From Acidimicrobiales bacterium (lineage in GTDB: Bacteria; Actinomycetota; Acidimicrobiia; Acidimicrobiales; Aldehydirespiratoraceae): DNA of 64,000 bases. Location of the stretch: positions 158,557 to 222,556 of the forward strand of contig JAVJSI010000010.1 of NCBI GenBank assembly GCA_040219515.1, written 5' to 3'. The notes beneath the pieces are model-generated. The model did no database searches. It saw only the letters and a list, made by a program, of their open reading frames with translations, and had not been told where the DNA came from. The translations under genes were made by a program, and so were the position numbers. Each line of letters starts with the position of its first letter. The stretch's first letter is position 1. Positions 7,038 to 62,285 of the stretch are shown here, one piece after another.

Positions 7038-9068
7038 CTAGGTCGGTGGCGGTCGTCGTCGCCGCCGCTTCGGGCGGCCGGATGCCGACTCGGCGAGGCG
7101 CGGCGGCAGATCGACGATGCCGGCCAGATGGGGGCTGGGTGCCGTGTCGTGCGGGAACGCCATGGCGGCGACGAAGAGTTCCTGGAAGCGGGGTTCGGTC
7201 GCCGTCTCGATCTTCTCGATGCCGTCGACGGCGGCGGCGATCTCGGCCCGCTGGGCAGCCGATACGAGCATCCGCACGGCGCCGGCTCCCGACGAGTTGC
7301 CCACGGCACGGACACCCTCGACCGGACAGTCGGGGACGAGGCCGAGGACCAGCGCGTACAGCGGATCGATGTGGGCGCCGAACGCACCGGCGAGCCGGAC
7401 GTCGTGCACCTCGTCGATCCCGGCGTGTTCCATCAGCAGATCGATGCCGGCCCGCAGCGCCGACCCGGCGAGCTGGATCTGGCGCACGTCGTCCTGCGTG
7501 ATGGCGAGTTCGGGGTCGTCGCCCTCGGCGGCTCGGATGACGTAGCGGAACGTGCGATGGTCGGGCTTCACCCGGTCCGTGACCGCGGCGAGTGCGCCCT
7601 GGACGACACCGTTCTGGTCACACACGCCGGCCAGGTACATCTCGCCGATGATCTCGATGATCGCCGAGCCACAGAGGCCGGCGACATCGAGCTTCGCCGT
7701 CTCCTCCGCGAATCCGGGTTCGTCGCTCCAGAGATCGGATCCGATGACCTTGTAGCGCGGTGCGAAGGTCGCCCGGTCGATGCGGATGCGCTCGATGGCC
7801 CCGGCGGTGGCCCGCATGCCGCAACTGATCTGGGCGCCCTCGAACGCCGGGCCGGTGGGGGAGGACGCGGCATACGTGGCGCGGGCGGTGCCGAGGACGA
7901 TCTCGGCGTTGGTCCCCACATCGACCATCAGTTGCGGGTGGTCGCTGCGGTGGGTGCCCTCGTTCAGCGTCGCTGCGGCGGCATCGGCGCCGACATGGCC
8001 GGCGATGCAGGGGCCGACATGGGCTCGGGCGAACGGGAGGTCGAGATCGAGTTCGTCGGCACGGAGGTCGACGGGCGCGCCGACGGTGAGGGTGAACGGG
8101 GCGGCGCCGAGCGGGGTGGGGTCGATGCCCAACAGCAGATGGTGCATGACCGGATTGCCGACCAGCACCACATCGTGGATGCGGCGGCGCAGGTCGACCG
8201 ACTCCTCGCTCAGGTCGGCCGCGAGCTCGTCGACCATGCCGTCGAGGGCGGCTCGGACCGCGGCGGTGAGTTCTCGCTCGCCCCCCGGGTTCATCATCAC
8301 GTAGGACACCCGGCTCATGAGGTCTTCACCGAAGCGGATCTGCGGGTTCATCGCGCCGCCGCCGGCGATGACCTCGCCGGTGGCGAGGTCGACGAGGTAG
8401 CCGGCGATGGTGGTCGACCCGACATCGATCGCCAGGCCGAGCACGGTCTCGTCGAAACCGGGTCGCACGTGCATGACCGTGCCGTCGGTGTGGACGATCG
8501 CGGTGACCGCGCGCTTGCCGGTGCGGATGGCGAGCTGGAGGTCGGGCAGGGAGCGGGCGTCGACGATGGCGTCGGTGATGCCCCAGTCGGCCTCGAGCGC
8601 GGTGGCGAGCAGCTCGGCGTCGGTCCGCTCGTCACCGAGGTCGAGGGACGGTAGTTCGACGTAGCGGGCCACGACCAACGGGTCGAGTGTGAGCCCGGTG
8701 AGGTCGATCTTCTTGCGCACGACGGGACGGTGAACCTGGCTCTCGGCCGGTACGTCGACGACGAGGTCGCCGCACACCAGCGCCTGGCAACCGAGCCGGT
8801 TGCCGTCGGCGATGGGGCGGCGGCCGCGATAGTTCGTCTCGCTCGAGGTCCACTCGCTCACGTCGTCGGGGGTCGAGGCGATCTTCCACTTCGCGAACTC
8901 GCCGAACGCGGGCCGGACCTGGCACCGGCCGCAGAGGCCCCGGCCTCCGCAGGTGGAGTCGAGGTCGACGGCCACCGAACGGGCGGCGTCGAGCAGGGTG
9001 GTGCCGGCCGGGACGCGGGTCTTCACCCCCGAGGGGGTGAAGACCACGGTGACATCGGCGTCGGTCAT
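7038..9068 (-). CDS. RACo-like corrinoid reductive activator (N-terminal 2Fe-2S ferredoxin plus ASKHA ATPase domain)
   Basis: The N-terminus CGGRGLCGRCQV…C is plant-type ferredoxin-like. The long C-terminal region is ASKHA/DUF4445-like (…AIDVGSTTIAGYL…, …DVGTNAEIV…). Last gene of the corrinoid operon. Confidence 0.8.
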   Translation of the reverse strand: MTDADVTVVFTPSGVKTRVPAGTTLLDAARSVAVDLDSTCGGRGLCGRCQVRPAFGEFAKWKIASTPDDVSEWTSSETNYRGRRPIADGNRLGCQALVCGDLVVDVPAESQVHRPVVRKKIDLTGLTLDPLVVARYVELPSLDLGDERTDAELLATALEADWGITDAIVDARSLPDLQLAIRTGKRAVTAIVHTDGTVMHVRPGFDETVLGLAIDVGSTTIAGYLVDLATGEVIAGGGAMNPQIRFGEDLMSRVSYVMMNPGGERELTAAVRAALDGMVDELAADLSEESVDLRRRIHDVVLVGNPVMHHLLLGIDPTPLGAAPFTLTVGAPVDLRADELDLDLPFARAHVGPCIAGHVGADAAAATLNEGTHRSDHPQLMVDVGTNAEIVLGTARATYAASSPTGPAFEGAQISCGMRATAGAIERIRIDRATFAPRYKVIGSDLWSDEPGFAEETAKLDVAGLCGSAIIEIIGEMYLAGVCDQNGVVQGALAAVTDRVKPDHRTFRYVIRAAEGDDPELAITQDDVRQIQLAGSALRAGIDLLMEHAGIDEVHDVRLAGAFGAHIDPLYALVLGLVPDCPVEGVRAVGNSSGAGAVRMLVSAAQRAEIAAAVDGIEKIETATEPRFQELFVAAMAFPHDTAPSPHLAGIVDLPPRLAESASGRPKRRRRRPPPT

Positions 9069-9095
9069 GCGGGCTCGGTCATGCGGCCGCCGTGC

Positions 9096-10007
9096 TCAGG
9101 TCGCCGCGCCGCCGCGGCGGCGTCCACCCCGACGACGCGCGCCGCCGGCCCCGGTGCCGGCGTTGGGGTCGCGGAACTGTTGAATCCACGCCGAGCAGTC
9201 CTTGTCCTGACCGGCGAGCACATCCGCGGCCATGATCGCGGTCTTCACCTCGTCGTGAAGGGGACTCATGATGGCCGACGTCATTCCGGCACCGATGGCC
9301 ATGGCCAGGTAGGTGCCGGTGATGGCATGGCGGTTGGGCAGGCCGAAACTGACGTTGGAGGCGCCGCACGTTGTGTTGACGCCCAATTCCTCGCGGAGGC
9401 GACGGACGAGCGCGAACACCTGCTGGCCGGCCGTGCCCATCGCGCCGATCGGCATCACCAGGGGATCGACGATCACGTCCTCCTTCGGGATGCCGTAGTC
9501 GGCCGCGGCGAGCACGATCTTCTTGGCCACCTCGAAACGCACGTCGGGGTCTTCGCTGATACCGGTTTCGTCGTTGGAGATGGCGACGACGGCGGCACCG
9601 TGCTTCGCGACCAGCGGGAGGACACGCTCCATCACCTCGTTCTCACCGGTGACCGAGTTGATCAGCGGCTTGCCCTGATAGACGGCGATGCCGGCCTCGA
9701 GCGCTTCGATGATCGACGAGTCGATGGCGAGGGGCACGTCGGTGACCGACTGCACCAGCTGGATCGCCTGGGCGAGCAGTGCCGGCTCGTCGGCCAGCGG
9801 GATGCCGGCGTTGACGTCGAGCATGTGGGCACCGGCGGCGACCTGTGCGAGGGCGTCGGCCTCGACCCGGCTGAAGTCGCCGTTCTTCATCTCTTCGGCG
9901 AGGAGCTTGCGGCCCGTGGGGTTGATGCGCTCACCGATCATCACGAAGGGACGATCGAAGCCGATGACGACCTCTTTGGTTGCGGAGCTGATGACGGTGT
10001 CGGTCAC
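9096..10007 (-). CDS. Methyltetrahydrofolate:corrinoid methyltransferase (pterin-binding, MtrH/AcsE/MetH-like)
   Basis: GERINPTGRK, …MLDVNAG…, …PLAIDSS…, …INSVTGE… and …CGASNVSFGLP… are hallmarks of the pterin-binding barrel. The GTG at 10007 overlaps the upstream stop (GTGA). The longer ORF extension is Arg-rich and implausible. Confidence 0.8.
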   Translation of the reverse strand: MTDTVISSATKEVVIGFDRPFVMIGERINPTGRKLLAEEMKNGDFSRVEADALAQVAAGAHMLDVNAGIPLADEPALLAQAIQLVQSVTDVPLAIDSSIIEALEAGIAVYQGKPLINSVTGENEVMERVLPLVAKHGAAVVAISNDETGISEDPDVRFEVAKKIVLAAADYGIPKEDVIVDPLVMPIGAMGTAGQQVFALVRRLREELGVNTTCGASNVSFGLPNRHAITGTYLAMAIGAGMTSAIMSPLHDEVKTAIMAADVLAGQDKDCSAWIQQFRDPNAGTGAGGARRRGGRRRGGAAT

Positions 10008-11810: not shown

Positions 11811-14639
11811 GTGTCAGAGGAAACCGGACCCGACGATCGCCCGCTCCATCGCTACGACGCGAGCCGCGCCGACGAGATCGAGACCCGCTGGCAGGAGGCC
11901 TGGCGGGCCGAGGGCACGTATCACGCGCCGAATCCCGCCGGCCCGCTCGAGAATGCCGATTCGGGCCTGACCGACCAGCCGAAGCTCTTCATCATGGACA
12001 TGTTCCCGTACCCCTCGGGTACCGGACTCCACGTGGGGCACCCGTTGGGCTACATCTCCACCGACGTCTACGCCCGGTTCAAGCGGATGACCGGCTACAA
12101 CGTGCTCCACGCCATGGGCTACGACGCCTTCGGCCTTCCGGCCGAAGAGCACGCCCGTCAGACCGGTGAGCACCCCCGGGTCAACACCGAGCGCAACATC
12201 GCGAACATGACTCGCCAGCTGGAGCGACTGGGTCTCGGCCACGACGAGCGCCGCTCGGTCGCCACCACCGATCCTGCGTTCTACCGGTGGACACAGTGGA
12301 TCTTCCTGCAACTCTTCGACGCGTGGTTCGACGAGGATCAGCAGAAGGGCCGCCCGATCGACGAACTGGTGGCCGAGTTCGACGCAGGGTCTCGCACACC
12401 GAAGGGGGGCGAGAACTGGGCCTCGGCCGACGAGTCGACCCGTCGGGAGATCGTGCAGCAGTACCGGCTCGCCTATGTCGACGATGCCCCGGTGAACTGG
12501 TGCCCCGGTCTCGGCACCGTGCTGGCCAATGAGGAGGTCACCGCCGAGGGTCGTTCCGAGCGGGGCAACTTCCCGGTTTTCCGGCGACCGTTGCGCCAGT
12601 GGATGATGCGCATCACGGCCTATGCCGATCGGTTGCTCGCCGATCTCGAGCTGCTCGACTGGACCGACTCGATCAAGACGATGCAACGCAACTGGATCGG
12701 TCGCAGCGAGGGCGCGTTCGTCGACTTTGCCAGCGACGCCGGTCCGCTGCGGGTGTTCACGACCCGGCCCGACACGCTCTTCGGCGCCACCTACATGGTG
12801 CTCGCTCCCGAACACCCGCTCGTCGACGAACTGATCGCCGACGTGTGGCCCGAGAACACCGATCCCCGGTGGACCTCCGGCGCACGGACGCCGGCCGACG
12901 CCGTCGCGATCTATCGCGCCCGAGTCGAGCAGATGACCGACCTCGACCGCCAGGAGACCAAGGAGAAGACGGGTGTCTTCCTCGGTTCGACCGCCGTCAA
13001 CCCCACGACCGGGAAGCCGATCCCGGTCTTCATCGCCGACTATGTGCTCATGGGCTACGGAACGGGCGCGATCATGGCCGTGCCGGCCCAGGACACTCGC
13101 GACTGGGAGTTCGCCGAGCTGTTCGGGCTTCCGATCGTCCGCACCGTGCAGCCGCCCGATGGGTGGGAGGACGATGGTGGCGAGGCCTACGTGGGTGAGG
13201 GGCCGGCCATCAACTCGTCGTTCCTCGACGGGTTGGGGGTCGACGCAGCCAAGACGCGGATCATCGAGTGGCTCGAGGCGGAGGGCCATGGGGAGCGCAC
13301 CGTCACCTACAAGCTGCGTGACTGGCTCTTCAGCCGCCAGCGCTACTGGGGCGAGCCGTTTCCGATCGTCTACGGCGACGACGACCTGCCCCGCGCCGTG
13401 CCCGACGAGGAGCTGCCGGTGCTCCTGCCCGACCTCATGGACTGGGCGCCGAGAGAGCTCGACGAAGACTCCGAGCCGGAGCCGCCGCTCGGACGCGTCG
13501 AGGAGTGGCGCGAGGTCGAGCTCGACCTCGGCGACGGGCCCCGTGCCTACCGTCGCGAGCTCAACACGATGCCGCAGTGGGCGGGCTCGTGTTGGTACTA
13601 CCTGCGCTATCTCGACCCGACCAACGAGAACGCCATGGTCGACCCGGCCGTGGAGCAGTACTGGATGGGCGACGCCGATGCCGACGGTGTCGGGGGCGTC
13701 GATCTCTACGTGGGCGGCGTGGAGCACGCCGTGCTGCACCTGCTCTATTCGCGCTTCTGGCACAAGGTCCTCTTCGACCTCGGCCATGTCTCGGGCCCCG
13801 AGCCGTTCAAGCGCCTCATCAACCAGGGCTACATCCAGGCCGCCGCGTTCCAGGACGACCGCGGTGCCTACGTCCCCGCCGAGGAGGTCGAGGGTGACCA
13901 GGATGCGGGCTTCACCCACGACGGCAAGCCGGTCACCCGCAGCTTCGGGAAGATGGGCAAGTCGCTGAAGAACTCGGTGACCCCCGACGACATGTACGCC
14001 GTCTATGGCGCCGACACCCTGCGCCTCTACGAGATGGCCATGGGTCCGATCGACCAGGATCGCCCGTGGGAGACCCGCTCCGTGGTGGGTTCCCATCGTC
14101 TGTTGCAGCGGGTCTGGCGCAATCTGGTCGACGAGGAGACCGGCGAGCTCACCGTTGTCGACGAGCCGGCCGACGACGAACTCCGCAAGCTGCTGCACCG
14201 CACGATCGACGGCGTGCGGGCCGACATGGACGGTCTGCGGTTCAACACGGCGATCGCCAAGGTGACCGAGCTCAACAACGAGCTGACCAAGCGCGACGCC
14301 GGGACCCCCCGTGAGGTGGCCGACGCCATCGTGCGCATGCTGTCGCCGCTCGTTCCCCACGTGACCGAAGAGCTGTGGCATCGCATGGGCGGCGAGGGTT
14401 CCGTCACCCGGGCCCGGTTCCCCGAGGCCGACCCGTCGATGCTGGTCGACGACACCGTCGAGGTGCCGGTGCAGGTCAACGGCAAGGTGCGAGGCAAGAT
14501 CATGATCGCCGCCGATGCCGACGAGGCGACCGCCATCGCCGCCGCCCTGGCCGAGGCCAATGTGCAGGCGCACATCGGCGGGAAGGAGCTCCGCAAGACG
14601 ATCTACGTCCCCGGCCGCATGGTCACCCTCGTCGTCTGA
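11811..14639 (+). CDS. leuS: Leucine--tRNA ligase
   Basis: Class I signatures are present: HVGHPLGY (HIGH) and KMGKSLKN (KMSKS), with the CP1 editing region in between. The GTG at 11811 gives a conserved N-terminus (…[17 protein letters not shown]…). Confidence 0.95.
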
Positions 14640-54225: not shown

Positions 54226-55461
54226 GTGATGGCGCTCGATCTCGAGTTCGTCCGATCCCAGTTCCCGGCCTTCGCCGACCCCGAGACGAGCCGGTGGGCG
54301 CATCTCGAGAACGCCGGTGGGAGCTACGCCGCCGGTCAGGTCATCGATCTGTTGACCTCGCTGTTCTCCACGGCCAAGGTGCAGCCGTCCTGGGCGTTCG
54401 GTCCGTCGCAGGTCGCCACCGCGGCGATGGACCGGGCCCGCACGGCGATGGCGTCGACGTTCGCCGCCCAGCCCGACGAGGTCCACTTCGGTCCCTCGAC
54501 GAGTCAGAACACCTACGTCCTCGCGCACGCGATGCGACCGATGTGGGACGAGGGCGACGAGATCGTCGTGACCGAGCAGGATCACGAGGCGAACTCGGGC
54601 GTCTGGCGACGACTGGCCGCCACCGGCATCGTCGTGCGCGACTGGACCGTCGACCCGGCCACCGGCCTGCTCGACCCCGCGATGCTCGACTCGCTGATCA
54701 CCGAGCGGACCCGACTCGTGACGATGACCCACGCCTCCAACGTCGCGGCGACCATCAACCCCGTGCGCGAGGTCGCCGACAAGGTGCACGCCGTCGGCGG
54801 ACACCTGGTGGTCGATGGGGTGTCCTACGCACCGCACGGCGGCGTCGACGTCGGTGCGCTCGGCTGCGATGTCTACCTCTACAGCGGCTACAAGACCTAC
54901 GGCCCTCATCTCGGTCTCATGTACGTGGACCGCGCGCTGCTGCCGCAGCTCGCGCACCAGGGCCACTTCTTCAACGAAGCGAAACTCTCGACCCGCGTGA
55001 CCCCCGCAGGCCCCGATCACGCCGTGATCGGCGCCTCGGCCGGCATCGTCGACTACTACGACGCGGTCCACGCCCATCACGGTGGGGAAGCCATGGACCC
55101 GCTCGCCCGCATCGGCGACGTGGGTCGACGGTTCCGCGAGCACGAGACCGAGATCATCGCGCCGCTCCTCGGCCTGCTCGCTCAGCGGGACGGGGTGCGG
55201 GTGATCGGCGCAACCGAGGCCGACGCCGCAGTGCGGGCCCCCACGATCGCGTTCGCCAGCGAACGTCACTCATCGGCCGCCGTCTACGACGCGCTGATCG
55301 CCGCCGGGGTCTCGTGTGGGCACGGCCACTTCTATGCCCATCGCCTGGTCACCGCGCTCGGGCTCGATCCCGACGATGGCGTCGTCCGGCTGTCGGTCGT
55401 GCACTACAACTCGACCGAGGACGTGGCCCGCGCCCTCTCAGTGCTCGATCCGCTCGTCTGA
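54226..55461 (+). CDS. Aminotransferase class V-fold PLP-dependent enzyme (cysteine desulfurase / selenocysteine lyase superfamily)
   Basis: …HASNVAATINP…, …DGVSYAPHG… and …YSGYKTYGPH… (PLP-Lys context). I cannot place a catalytic Cys loop with confidence. Confidence 0.75.
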   Translation: MMALDLEFVRSQFPAFADPETSRWAHLENAGGSYAAGQVIDLLTSLFSTAKVQPSWAFGPSQVATAAMDRARTAMASTFAAQPDEVHFGPSTSQNTYVLAHAMRPMWDEGDEIVVTEQDHEANSGVWRRLAATGIVVRDWTVDPATGLLDPAMLDSLITERTRLVTMTHASNVAATINPVREVADKVHAVGGHLVVDGVSYAPHGGVDVGALGCDVYLYSGYKTYGPHLGLMYVDRALLPQLAHQGHFFNEAKLSTRVTPAGPDHAVIGASAGIVDYYDAVHAHHGGEAMDPLARIGDVGRRFREHETEIIAPLLGLLAQRDGVRVIGATEADAAVRAPTIAFASERHSSAAVYDALIAAGVSCGHGHFYAHRLVTALGLDPDDGVVRLSVVHYNSTEDVARALSVLDPLV

Positions 55462-55474
55462 GTCGTTCCGTAGG

Positions 55475-56089
55475 TCAGGGACGTTCGCCGACCGACGGCC
55501 CTTCGGTGCGCGTGCGCTTCAGTTCCCAGAAGCCGTCGACGTTCATCATCGCCACCAGCGCATCCCACATCGCAAGGGAGTCCTCGGTGTTCGGCACCTT
55601 CGTGATGACCGGGCCGAAGTAGCCCCGCTTGACCCCGTCGCGATCGTCGAACGCGATGATCGGGGTGCCGACGTCGTCGCCGGTGAGGGCGAGACCCGCA
55701 TCGTGACGCCGCTGGATCTCGGTATCGAATTCGTCGGTGTCGAAGGCGACGGCGTGAGAGGCGGGAAGGCCCACGGCTGCGAGGGCCTCGGCGACCTCGA
55801 AGTCCAACGCCTTGTCGTGATGGATGCGGCGCCCGTACTCCCAGTAGAGGCGAAACACGGCATCTTCGCCTTCGGTGGCGCGCACCGACTCCATGACCCG
55901 CAGGAGGCGGTAGGTCCGATCCACGGGTTCGTAGAACGAACTGTCGGGCTCGGGTGCGTTCTTCAGCTTGAGGCTGATGGGCTGCCACGTGATGTTCAGG
56001 TCACGGGCCGGTGCCACCTCGTCGACGACCCAACGGGCCGTCACCCAGCACCACGGTCAAATGGGGTCGACCCAGAACTCGAGATCCAT
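55475..56089 (-). CDS. Rv2466c-like DsbA-family (mycothiol-type) oxidoreductase with an in-frame TGA replacing the first Cys of the CPWC motif; candidate selenoprotein or pseudogene
   Basis: The minus strand reads ATG GAT CTC GAG TTC TGG GTC GAC CCC ATT TGA CCG TGG TGC TGG GTG…, i.e. MDLEFWVDPI-[TGA]-PWCWVTARWVVDEV…. This aligns with FWFDPLCPWCWITSRW of Rv2466c, and the C-terminus …FWELKRTRTE… also matches. The ORF track only reports 55475-56044, starting from a GTG. Confidence 0.5.
56010..56052 (-). other. SECIS-like bipartite hairpin immediately 3' of the in-frame UGA
   Basis: The lower stem pairs GGUGC with GCACC (nt +8-12 with +46-50 from the U of UGA). The upper stem pairs GACGGCCC with GGGUCGUC (8 bp, one G-U) around a GUU apical loop, whose G is about 23 nt after the UGA. 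Confidence 0.3.
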
Positions 56090-56189
56090 GACTCGGCAGC
56101 GTACCGCCGCGATGTGGGAGCCTTGCCCCGTGGCTGTTCCGGGAACGTCCGAGGTCAGGGTGCGGGCGAGCGACCGGTATTCGCTGCCG

Positions 56190-57443
56190 GTGGTGCGCAG
56201 CATCGTCCGGCGACCGCGGTTGACCGAAGCGCTGTTCGGCCGGACGCGCTGGGGCAACTCCTTCGCGCTCGAGCACCGACCGTGGCCGTACCCGTCCTAC
56301 GAGCCGATGCGGGCCGACGGTGAGGTGGCCTGGAACCCGTGGTTCCAGCAGTGGTTCGTGACGGGCTACGACGAGGCTCGCGAGGTGCTGTCGTCACCTG
56401 CCGTCGAGGTGGCCACCCAGCGCGAAGTGATGCTCGCGGTGAAGCCGCATTCGGCGATGAGCCGGAACTCGAAGGAACTGTTCCGGCACTTCCTGCTCTT
56501 CGTCGACCCGCCCGACCACACGCGGCTGCGCTCGTTGGTGAGCCGGGCGTTCACGCCGAAGCAGATGGAGCGCATCGAGCCCGAGGTCGAACGTCTCGCG
56601 GCGCAACTGCTCGATGATCTCGCTGATCAGCCCGCGCCCGACCTCTTCGCCGGATTCAACGCACCGCTCCCGATCCACGTCATCTCGGTGCTGCTCGGGA
56701 TCCCCGAGGAACGTTGGCCGTTCACCGTCGAGTTGTCGGCCGCCCTCATCGCGTACCTCGACCCCTTCCCCGACTTCGATCCGGTGGAGACCGATGCGAT
56801 CCTGAACCGGGGCGTGCAGTTCTTCGACGACCTCATCGAGGAACGGCGTGTGTCGCCGCAAGACGACCTGATCTCCGCCCTGGTCGCGGTGGAGGACGAC
56901 GACGACCGCCTGTCGCGCTTCGAGACGATCGCAATGGCGATGTTCCTGATGTTCGCCGGTCACGAGACCACCAGCGGATCGCTCGGCAACGCGATGGTGG
57001 CGCTCGCTCGATTTCCGGACCAGCGCGCGCTGATCCGCGACGACCCGGCCTTGTGGCCCAACGCCGTCGAGGAGCTCCTGCGCTGGGATGCGCCGCTGCA
57101 ACTCGACCCCCGCGCCGCACGCGAGGACTTCGAGGTCGGCGGACAGACCATCGAAGCCGGACGGCGGATCATGGTGGTGCTCGGGGCGGCAAACCGCGAT
57201 CCGCGACGCTGGCCCGACGCCAACACCCTTCGCCTCGACCGCGACGACCCCCGGCCGATCTCGTTCGGTCACGGGATTCACCACTGCATCGGTGCGGCGC
57301 TCGCCCGGATGCAGATGCGGATCGGACTCCGAGCGTTCCTCGAGCGGTTCGGCGACTACACGATCGACGAGTCGACCGTGGTCTGGAAGGCGCATCCCGT
57401 CCTGCGAGGGCCAGTGGTGCTCCCGGTCACGCCTTCGCGGTGA
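56190..57443 (+). CDS. Cytochrome P450
   Basis: Heme-binding loop FGHGIHHCIGAALARMQM, EELLRW (ExxR) and AGHETT (I-helix). The start is uncertain: GTG at 56190 or 56193 gives about 417 aa, and the longest-ORF ATGs at 56088 and 56112 are less likely. Confidence 0.85.
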   Translation: MVRSIVRRPRLTEALFGRTRWGNSFALEHRPWPYPSYEPMRADGEVAWNPWFQQWFVTGYDEAREVLSSPAVEVATQREVMLAVKPHSAMSRNSKELFRHFLLFVDPPDHTRLRSLVSRAFTPKQMERIEPEVERLAAQLLDDLADQPAPDLFAGFNAPLPIHVISVLLGIPEERWPFTVELSAALIAYLDPFPDFDPVETDAILNRGVQFFDDLIEERRVSPQDDLISALVAVEDDDDRLSRFETIAMAMFLMFAGHETTSGSLGNAMVALARFPDQRALIRDDPALWPNAVEELLRWDAPLQLDPRAAREDFEVGGQTIEAGRRIMVVLGAANRDPRRWPDANTLRLDRDDPRPISFGHGIHHCIGAALARMQMRIGLRAFLERFGDYTIDESTVVWKAHPVLRGPVVLPVTPSR

Positions 57444-58602
57444 TACCCACTCGGGCGGCGGGGGCCGCCCATTCGGGCCAACGCTCGCGGCTCTTCTGCG
57501 CGAGCTTGTGCATGAGCGCGATGGCGCCGGGGTCGTCGTCGCCGGGGCGGGTCTCGATGACGCCGTCCTTCACCATTGCGTCGATGATCGCCCGACCGAG
57601 TTCGGTGCGCACGATCGTGAGCGTCCAGTCGGTGGCGTCGCCGATCCCACCCGTGGAGATGTCGGCGTGCTCGGCCGCGAAGTCGGGGCAGTGGTGACAG
57701 CCCTCGCGGGTCCAGGCGTGGCATTCCTTGAGGTTGATCTCGTGGTAGCCGCCGTCCTTGGTCCACACCTGGAACACACCCTTGATGTTCATCTTGGCGA
57801 TGTTCTCCTTCTTCAGGCCGTACTTGACCTCGAAGAGTTCATCGAAGAGCGAATCGTCGAACGACTTGGAACACAGGAGCCCGATGTTGAGCTTGATCGG
57901 CTTGGAGACCTTGCCGATCTTGCGATGCCACATGACCGGCGCCACCGAGGTCTGACAGCTCATGCCCACCAGTGCGAGACGTTCGAGTCCCTTCTCCATG
58001 GCCTCGTCGAAGCCCATCGTGTTGGCCGAATACGTGTAGCGACTGCCGGCGCCCCGGAGCACCTCATCGCGATTGGTGGCGACCATGGGGAACGCCTTCC
58101 ATCCGGGGTCGCCGTTGGGCAGGTTCTCCACGCCGGATGTGAGGGCCCCGTCGACGATGTCGTTCTCGAGGCACCAGATGAGGATGGCCGAGACGAGGCC
58201 ACCGTCCTGGCCGATGTCGTAGACGAAGTCGTCGCTGGCCCGCGTGAGGAGGATGTCGGAATAGACCCCGGCCATCTCCTCGGGCTCGCGCTCGCGGCCG
58301 AAGAGGTGGAGGTCGGCTTCCGGTTCCCACGCCCGGAACCGGGGGCAGGCCCGGGTGCACGACGTGCAGCCCTTCTGCCCGTGGACGCAATCATCCAGCC
58401 CGAGCTCCTCCTCGAGATGGAACGGGGTGTAGGCGCCGGGTTCGTGTTCGTAGCCGATGACGTCGTGGGGGCACGAGATGACACAGCCGGCGCAGCCGGT
58501 GCACAGCCCACTCGTGATCACCTCGTCGAACAGCTCTTTCCACTGGTAGGTCCAACGTTCCTTCTTCGCCGGAGCGGTGGGGGTGGAGTCGGTGACGGCC
58601 AT
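57427..58602 (-). CDS. FrhB/FdhB-family coenzyme F420-dependent oxidoreductase beta subunit with an N-terminal 2x[4Fe-4S] ferredoxin domain
   Basis: CTGCAGCVISCP and CTSCTRACP cluster motifs. The FrhB-like core reads …LALVGMSCQTS…, …GLLCSKSF… and …CHHCPDFAAEHADISTGG…. Confidence 0.75.
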   Translation of the reverse strand: MAVTDSTPTAPAKKERWTYQWKELFDEVITSGLCTGCAGCVISCPHDVIGYEHEPGAYTPFHLEEELGLDDCVHGQKGCTSCTRACPRFRAWEPEADLHLFGREREPEEMAGVYSDILLTRASDDFVYDIGQDGGLVSAILIWCLENDIVDGALTSGVENLPNGDPGWKAFPMVATNRDEVLRGAGSRYTYSANTMGFDEAMEKGLERLALVGMSCQTSVAPVMWHRKIGKVSKPIKLNIGLLCSKSFDDSLFDELFEVKYGLKKENIAKMNIKGVFQVWTKDGGYHEINLKECHAWTREGCHHCPDFAAEHADISTGGIGDATDWTLTIVRTELGRAIIDAMVKDGVIETRPGDDDPGAIALMHKLAQKSRERWPEWAAPAARVGITAKA

Positions 58603-58689
58603 GACGCCGAACCTAGTCGCCACTGTCACGAACCAGCGACCTGTCTCGTCATGTGGGCGACGGCACCACGCCGCAATCAGACGAGGAGG

Positions 58690-62212: not shown

Positions 62213-62213
62213 G

Positions 62214-62285
62214 CGCCCTCGGCAGGACTCGAACCTGCGCTCACGCCTCCGGAGGGCGATGCTCTATCCGCTGAGCTACGAGGGC
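62214..62285 (-). tRNA. tRNA-Arg (anticodon CCG)
   Basis: Manual cloverleaf fold on the minus strand. Acceptor GCCCTCG/CGAGGGC, D-arm GCTC-AGCGGATA-GAGC, anticodon loop CT-CCG-GA, T-arm GCAGG-TTCGAGT-CCTGC. No CCA is encoded. Confidence 0.85.

Follow-up and report, generated by a model that had tools for sequence, protein, structure and literature searches.

Does a TGA codon at the active site of a small oxidoreductase gene end translation, or does it encode the catalytic residue? The question is raised by a 64-kb stretch of DNA from an Acidimicrobiales bacterium (contig JAVJSI010000010.1), referred to here as the window and meaning the whole 64,000 nucleotides that were analysed. A gene on its minus strand, related to Rv2466c (Mrx2) of Mycobacterium tuberculosis and to the DsbA family, carries an in-frame TGA aligned with the redox-active Cys of its homologues. 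We consider it very likely, judging from comparisons of sequence, that this UGA is a selenocysteine (Sec) codon, decoded through SelB under the direction of a selenocysteine insertion sequence (SECIS) and giving a reductase with a U-P-W-C active site. The parts of the gene to which the argument refers are the following.

55475–56089, minus strand: coding sequence of the proposed Sec-containing Rv2466c/Mrx2-like DsbA-family oxidoreductase; its 204 codons count the Sec codon but not the stop codon, TGA at 55475–55477
56087–56089, minus strand: start codon ATG, ten codons 5' of the proposed Sec codon
56057–56059, minus strand: in-frame TGA, the proposed Sec codon (U11), counterpart of the nucleophilic Cys19 of M. 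tuberculosis Rv2466c
56048–56050, minus strand: TGC codon of the resolving Cys (C14) of U-P-W-C, counterpart of Cys22 of Rv2466c
55475–56044, minus strand: truncated open reading frame (ORF) of 189 amino acids (aa) from GTG 56044, the gene-caller product, without the nucleophilic residue

Reading frame and annotation

By translation, the minus-strand frame opens at the ATG (56089–56087), reads MDLEFWVDPI up to the TGA at 56059–56057, continues as PWCWVTARWVVDEV... and closes at the stop TGA at 55477–55475. The mechanical ORF list splits this gene into the 189-aa ORF from GTG 56044 and a separate 66-aa ORF that ends in ...MDLEFWVDPI; the observation in the first-pass annotation that the ORF track starts at this GTG and cuts off the active site is therefore confirmed by the list itself. 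The undivided frame and its length are kept in 124 relatives that carry the TGA. The ATG at the −10 position is found in 83 of 125 such forms, and in many relatives it is preceded by an AAGGAG Shine-Dalgarno sequence at 6–8 nt or lies 4 nt past the stop codon of a preceding frhB-like gene. A promoter and terminator scan of 55300–56500 found nothing.

The same cut recurs in the public records. In a protein search, the closest relatives, dozens of proteins from metagenome-assembled genomes of Acidimicrobiia with 68–81% identity, were all 189 aa long, covered 93% of the query and were truncated at the same place, and more distant relatives (62–71% identity) were full-length. The homologues that were checked are recorded as the 189-aa protein, including those on complete chromosomes, and where they have a name it is 'hypothetical' or 'DsbA'. 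Complete chromosomes bearing the gene include OZ244898.1, OZ224042.1, OZ243951.1, OZ242337.1, OZ244902.1 and OZ243946.1. The protein had no match among the NCBIfam models, and the uniformly truncated annotations are probably due to the lack of an NCBIfam model that covers it.

Protein family and active site

For profile and structure searches of the 204-residue protein, the internal stop was written as Cys. The protein matched the Pfam family PF22234 (Rv2466c-like) with an E-value of 6.5e-42, scoring 144.2 bits where the cut-off is 27 and with residues 10–192 covering positions 1–180 of the 180-position profile, and it also matched PF01323 (DSBA) with 31.6 bits against a cut-off of 25.6. Residues 4–199 align to the Rv2466c structures 4zil, 4nxi and 5xur (E about 1e-40). 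In this alignment, the query segment 'efwvdpiCpwcwvtarw' lies over 'dfwfdplCpwcwitsrw' of Rv2466c, and the TGA occupies the first Cys of CPWC. U-P-W-C thus matches the CPWC of the three structures column for column, with Sec rather than Cys read at its first position, and the placement of TGA 56057–56059 on the nucleophilic Cys after MDLEFWVDPI, as proposed in the earlier reading of the window, agrees in its coordinates with both the translation and the structural alignment. The second active-site Cys (C14) is invariant across all the forms examined, whether they carry TGA or a Cys codon.

The protein therefore has a UxxC motif, in the form U-P-W-C, within a DSBA-like thioredoxin domain, which is the combination of domain and motif that characterizes DsbA-like selenoproteins. 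Rv2466c itself works through Cys19, which attacks, and Cys22, which forms the disulfide, with mycothiol as the reductant; mycothiol-dependent reduction and a nitroreductase activity are the biochemical properties of Rv2466c/Mrx2 (PMC11841060). The best explanation of the gene product is a cytoplasmic thiol-disulfide reductase with a thioredoxin fold, of the Rv2466c (Mrx2)/DsbA-like kind, this activity being predicted from the family and the active site.

Conservation of the in-frame TGA

The codon was followed in two sets of relatives. The genome set comprised 80 species-representative loci from Acidimicrobiales, Ca. Aldehydirespiratoraceae and relatives, many of them on long-read complete chromosomes, and the metagenome set comprised 67 loci from a scan seeded with Cys-form relatives. 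All 80 genome orthologues have TGA at this codon. Among the metagenome relatives, TGA is present in 45 of the 67 loci and a Cys codon in the other 22 (16 TGC and 6 TGT). Forms with TGA are called Sec forms below, and those with TGC or TGT are called Cys forms. The Sec forms keep the TGA down to 44% pairwise identity, and the Cys form P0022, which is 71% identical to the query, reads FWVDPLCPWCWVTARW.

The coding sequence is conserved on both sides of the UGA. In the genome loci, the peptide before the TGA follows the pattern M-D-I/L-E-F-W-V/I-D-P-x, with I/L as the residue x. Over these ten codons, F, W, D and P are near-invariant, and the four-fold synonymous sites are free to vary, with 1.8–1.95 bits at Val −4 and Pro −2: the Val −4 codon is GTG in 24, GTC in 22, GTT in 21 and GTA in 11 sequences, and the entropy at Pro −2 is 1.79 bits. 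Since the amino acids are kept while the synonymous sites vary, the region before the TGA is translated in frame, and, as judged by this pattern of substitution, the short N-terminal peptide is under purifying selection.

These data bear directly on the simplest explanation of the TGA, namely that it is a nonsense mutation in a pseudogene or an error of sequencing or assembly in this contig. One base change leads from TGC or TGT to TGA, and this would be the default reading if one genome alone were available. The same TGA, however, is found in all 80 independent species representatives and in 45 independent metagenome contigs, with intact coding sequence on both flanks, which excludes a pseudogene or an error for practical purposes and makes this explanation extremely improbable.

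UGA also appears to keep its ordinary meaning in these organisms. The normal stop codon of the gene is itself TGA in 87 of 125 Sec forms, which indicates that UGA is an ordinary stop and that the recoding is local and site-specific. In a screen for further genes with in-frame TGA, based on third-position GC content, only the Rv2466c-like reductase family recurred. The other in-frame TGA candidates of the window were set aside, as they look like adjacent genes that share one frame.

A hairpin specific to the TGA forms

Immediately downstream of the UGA, the coding sequence contains a potential stem-loop.

56023–56043, minus strand: SECIS-like hairpin within the coding sequence; 5' arm 56043–56035 UGACGGCCC, loop 56034–56032 GUU, 3' arm 56031–56023 GGGUCGUCG

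With the T of the TGA numbered 1, bases 17–25 pair with bases 29–37 around the loop G26-U27-U28, and the hairpin begins 13 nt past the UGA. The 8-bp upper stem described in the first-pass annotation, GACGGCCC-GUU-GGGUCGUC, is present, and an extra U-G pair extends it to 9 bp. That annotation had proposed a two-tier hairpin, of which the upper tier with its GUU loop stands as a conserved and covarying element; the 5-bp lower stem (GGUGC/GCACC) exists in the window, but no more than 17 of the 122 Sec forms can make all five of its pairs, and it was rejected as a conserved element.

The upper stem is a property of the Sec forms. The 122 distinct Sec forms have pairing at 99.4% of the pair positions, and 115 of them keep all eight core pairs; in the Cys forms (n=19), 68% of the positions are paired and the core stem is intact in a single sequence. 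For the 24-nt segment, the minimum free energy (MFE) averages −13.3 kcal/mol in the Sec forms, as against −5.6 kcal/mol in the Cys forms. The apical loop is GUU in 114 of the 122 Sec forms and GGU in 8. L151 diverges most among the Sec forms of the tree described below; five of its pairs are changed, yet the complete stem, with a GUU loop, is retained.

Covariation was tested on 95 distinct 51-nt sequences. Three pairs changed on both sides, amounting to 14 cells, and 99.2% of the cells were paired. The compensatory changes are G-C to A-U at pair 18–36 (7 sequences), G-C to C-G, U-A and A-U at pair 21–33, and C-G to G-C at pair 23–31. None of 500 shuffles reached any of the five measures used, shifting the 3' partner of the stem lowered the pairing to 13–65%, and RNAalifold predicted the same helix without any structure as input. 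Synonymous sites are constrained as well. The four-fold codons within the stem (Val5, Thr6, Ala7, Arg8, Val10 and Val11) have a codon entropy of 0.29–0.47 bits in the Sec forms; Thr6, Ala7 and Arg8 have 1.25–1.82 bits in the Cys forms, and comparable codons outside the hairpin have 1.5–1.95 bits. The preferred stem codons are ACG and CGT in the Sec forms, compared with ACC and CGC in the Cys forms. The gene therefore has, directly after its UGA, a stem-loop with a small G-containing apical loop that is specific to the TGA forms, which are the features expected of a bacterial SECIS.

The conservation of the hairpin also helps to weigh the possibility that the locus holds two translated units, a ten-codon leader ORF, MDLEFWVDPI, that ends at the TGA, and a 189-aa protein that starts at GTG 56044, with the hairpin serving in regulation or re-initiation. 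This 189-aa model is just what gene callers give for dozens of genomes, and the GTG is kept in 108 of 114 sequences; its conservation is explained, however, by its position, as it forms bases 16–18 and covers the first pairs of the stem. Moreover, the supposed leader corresponds, in the Cys forms and in the Rv2466c structures, to the beta-strand (FW.DP) with which the thioredoxin fold begins, it is in frame with the remainder in every sequence, and a protein started at the GTG would have neither the catalytic nucleophile nor part of the fold. Two separate units are accordingly very unlikely, and the single recoded frame is preferred.

An alignment of orthologues, which had been suggested as a check, thus shows the TGA and the upper hairpin conserved in relatives and TGC or TGT in the 22 metagenome loci. 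As to the choice between a selenoprotein and a nonsense pseudogene that the first-pass annotation had put forward, the former is backed by the TGA in 80 of 80 genomes and in the 45 metagenome loci, by the selection upstream of it, by Cys homologues of up to 71% identity and by covariation of the hairpin in the TGA forms only.

Evolution of the Sec and Cys forms

In a neighbour-joining tree rooted on Rv2466c, several Cys forms are basal and are followed by one large clade, made up mostly of Sec forms, in which pairwise identity falls to 44%. Three groups of Cys forms are nested inside this Sec-dominated clade. Among them are the metagenome Cys forms L117 and L119, which have TGT (active site at 1528), are 80% identical to a Sec form, are nested among Sec forms and retain the complete GACGGCCC-GUU-GGGUCGUC hairpin. 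Based on their position and on the retained stem, L117 and L119 probably represent a recent reversion from Sec to Cys with a relic SECIS. Reversions of this kind, with the same relic pattern, have been described before (PMC1794560).

Selenocysteine machinery and counter-evidence

Several observations weigh against Sec decoding. The first concerns the hairpin when it is considered as a single sequence: its folding energy does not stand out from that of dinucleotide shuffles (z = 0.17), the sequence being rich in GC, and the predicted MFE structure is not the conserved one. Folding energy was dropped as evidence on these grounds, and the case for the proposed hairpin is comparative, not energetic. 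Secondly, part of the stem is favoured by the coding of Ala-Arg-Trp-Val (GCC CGN UGG G), and pairing in the Cys forms is still 68%. Thirdly, the window and, with a relaxed cut-off, the site itself were scanned against Rfam: no SECIS family matched at the gathering score or at E up to 10, and tRNA-Arg was the only match. Rfam is reported to cover bacterial SECIS elements poorly (bioRxiv 10.64898/2026.04.03.716425), and this negative result consequently carries little weight.

The fourth point is that neither selA, selB, selD nor a tRNA-Sec gene was found in the 64-kb window and 160 related loci, which come to 1.7 Mb in all. Searches of the window and these loci by tblastn with SelA, SelB and SelD of E. 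coli and Tsukamurella, the E. coli SelA query being 100% identical to the real gene, produced no matches, and ARAGORN detected no tRNA-Sec in the window. The tRNA-SeC(tca) that ARAGORN reported at 13751–13830 of locus L061 was rejected as a false positive, given its poor D and T arms, its location inside an 801-nt ORF of the opposite strand and the lack of an Rfam tRNA match. A search chain that started from actinobacterial SelA (50%-identity representatives and a mixed profile) reached Mycobacteriales, Nitriliruptorales, Myxococcota and Vicinamibacterales, and yielded no named Acidimicrobiia sequence and no contig bearing the reductase gene. The search for actinobacterial SelA also turned up a selD-selA-selB operon beside glycine reductase genes (GrdB, Gly_reductase) in a high-GC (71.7%) bacterium (L162; ENA ERZ25039476 contig_4799, 737060–750391), which has no established link to the lineage of the window.

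Sec decoding is nonetheless documented nearby. For Actinomarina, which belongs to another order of Acidimicrobiia, a preprint reports that each of the 84 complete genomes has selA, selB, selC and selD, and that there are about 5 selenoproteins per genome (bioRxiv 10.64898/2026.04.03.716425), and a 2006 survey listed 12 selenoprotein families in Actinobacteria (PMC1794560). The statement in the first-pass annotation that selenoproteins other than formate dehydrogenase are rare in this phylum was, in the light of these two reports, overstated.

That no machinery genes were found in these loci bears on another explanation, in which the UGA is read through without Sec: the hairpin would stimulate near-cognate decoding, with Cys, Trp or Arg inserted, or another kind of recoding that does not involve Sec, and little full-length enzyme would be made. 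The base after the recoded UGA is always C in the Sec forms, a UGA followed by C is a weak termination context, and in principle a hairpin beyond it could make termination slower. Yet full yield of a Cys enzyme could be had simply from TGC or TGT at this position, and the TGA, together with a costly constraint on the RNA, has been kept in more than 120 lineages and down to 44% identity. The location at a redox Cys, the Sec/Cys pairs among homologues and the small G-containing loop at a standard distance form a signature of SelB-dependent decoding (PMC1088965, PMC1794560), and the related order has the Sec machinery (bioRxiv 10.64898/2026.04.03.716425). Read-through of this kind is therefore very unlikely, and insertion of Sec remains by far the preferred reading of the UGA.

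Proposed mechanism

Under Sec decoding, translation would start at the ATG at 56089. The ribosome would not terminate at the UGA at 56059–56057, as the 9-bp GUU-loop hairpin 13 nt 3' of it would act as a bacterial SECIS and recruit SelB with GTP and Sec-tRNA(Sec), leading to the insertion of Sec; elongation would then go on to the ordinary UGA stop at 55477–55475. In the resulting enzyme, the selenolate of U11 would attack the substrate, which may be a disulfide or mixed disulfide or possibly, as for Mrx2, a nitro or other oxidised compound, and C14 would resolve the intermediate as a selenenylsulfide. The enzyme would presumably be re-reduced by a cellular thiol system, and this could be mycothiol if the lineage makes mycothiol.

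Genomic neighbourhood

The genes around the selenoprotein gene that were considered are listed below.

57427–58650, minus strand: FrhB/FpoF-like gene (coenzyme F420 hydrogenase/dehydrogenase beta-subunit family, 4Fe-4S domain, 407 aa); at 8779–9939 in locus L005
about 56150–57443, plus strand: cytochrome P450 gene, inserted between the frhB-like and selenoprotein genes
54226–55461, plus strand: cysteine desulfurase-like class V aminotransferase gene, convergent with the selenoprotein gene, the two stop codons lying 13 nt apart
62213–62285, minus strand: tRNA-Arg(CCG) gene, on the start-codon side of the selenoprotein gene and also present in most of loci L004–L060
59724–60851, plus strand: extracytoplasmic function (ECF)-type sigma factor gene (sigma-70 regions 2 and 4, long extension), 3.6 kb from the selenoprotein gene

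In 69 of the 80 Acidimicrobiia genomes, the frhB-like gene lies directly upstream on the same strand, is 83–98% identical to the copy in the window and is separated from the selenoprotein gene by a gap of 3–65 nt in most cases, an arrangement in which the two genes may form an operon. The P450 insertion, which splits this otherwise tight pair, is found only in the window and in L001, L003, L004 and L008. The frhB-like protein scores below the cut-offs for a true FrhB or FpoF. The adjacency is absent from the divergent Sec forms and from the Cys forms; functional coupling with this neighbour was therefore rejected, and the adjacency is treated as lineage synteny and as a weak functional hint. 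A broader conjecture would hold that the Sec-containing Mrx2-like protein is not mycothiol-dependent and is the redox partner of the upstream FrhB/FpoF-like iron-sulfur flavoprotein, the two forming a new F420- or ferredoxin-driven selenol/thiol reductase system, and that this gene is a main reason why Acidimicrobiales keep Sec decoding. Taken together, these propositions are improbable.

The convergent aminotransferase gene keeps its arrangement in 25 of the 80 genomes. Its best NCBIfam match, TIGR01976, is below the cut-off, and it has weaker similarity to SufS and to the selenocysteine lyase SclA; a role in the delivery of selenium or sulfur is conceivable. The tRNA-Arg(CCG) gene is part of a conserved synteny, which supports the orthology of the loci. 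Rv2466c is regulated by SigH in M. tuberculosis, and no link was found between the ECF sigma factor of the window and the selenoprotein gene.

One locus in the dataset stands out by its label. L030 (CAXMSE010000039.1), recorded as 'uncultured Gammaproteobacteria bacterium', has a typical Acidimicrobiia locus, with the frhB-like gene, a Sec gene of 72% identity and the same neighbours, and this bin is probably mislabelled or contaminated.

Significance

The main value of these results lies in the correction of annotation and in the indication that Sec use is widespread in Acidimicrobiales. One curated model combined with a SECIS rule would correct more than 100 truncated records. The gene would also imply that Sec decoding is widespread in this order, which is abundant in marine, sponge-associated and soil communities. 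In our literature search, the 2026 Actinomarina preprint was the only report found of Sec use in the class Acidimicrobiia.

Mrx2/Rv2466c is a prodrug activator in M. tuberculosis, and the natural Sec/Cys pair of this enzyme could offer a way to examine the contribution of selenium to its chemistry. In addition, the alignment, with its suppressed synonymous variation, its compensatory pairs and the loss of the hairpin in Cys revertants, could serve to train SECIS models for high-GC actinobacteria.

Comparison with known systems

The closest known system is Rv2466c/Mrx2 of M. tuberculosis (PF22234; PDB 4NXI, 4ZIL and 5XUR), with which the protein shares the fold, the length, an end-to-end alignment, the x-P-W-C motif at the same place and the C-terminal ELKRTRTE segment, Cys19 and Cys22 corresponding to U11 and C14. 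It differs in that its nucleophile is specified by UGA, read here as Sec, and that its mRNA contains the putative SECIS hairpin; the identity between the two proteins is only about 42%, the host belongs to the Acidimicrobiia, and the neighbourhood is different, with the frhB-like gene alongside in most relatives. Our literature search found no paper linking Rv2466c with selenocysteine.

The hairpin resembles known bacterial SECIS elements, such as that of E. coli fdhF and the bSECISearch model, in lying within the coding region and beginning at a short, constant spacing (13 nt) from the UGA. Its small loop always has G followed by U, in line with the small apical loop with a conserved G that is the hallmark of bacterial SECIS elements (PMC1088965), and, as in known cases, the element evolves with its selenoprotein gene (PMC1088965, PMC1794560). 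It differs in that its sequence is unrelated to that of the E. coli element, that it has no conserved bulged nucleotide and that it has no Rfam match, and its binding by SelB is a prediction.

DsbA-like selenoproteins provide the third comparison. UxxC proteins of this kind go back to 2005, when nine sequences assigned to COG2761 were identified in Sargasso Sea metagenome data (PMC1088965); by 2016 the count stood at 41 sequenced bacteria (PMC5029168), and a 2026 review has them as 'DsbA-like protein form 1, PF01323, UxxC' (PMC13188914). The gene shares with them a UxxC motif in a DSBA-like domain, many Cys homologues and a stem-loop with a G-containing loop after the UGA (PMC1088965, PMC5029168, PMC13188914). 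The published examples (AACY01178397, NIP15863.1) may belong to the Rv2466c-like branch or to another DsbA/FrnE branch. DsbA-like UxxC selenoproteins have thus been known since 2005, and the Rv2466c-like Sec gene joins a known kind.

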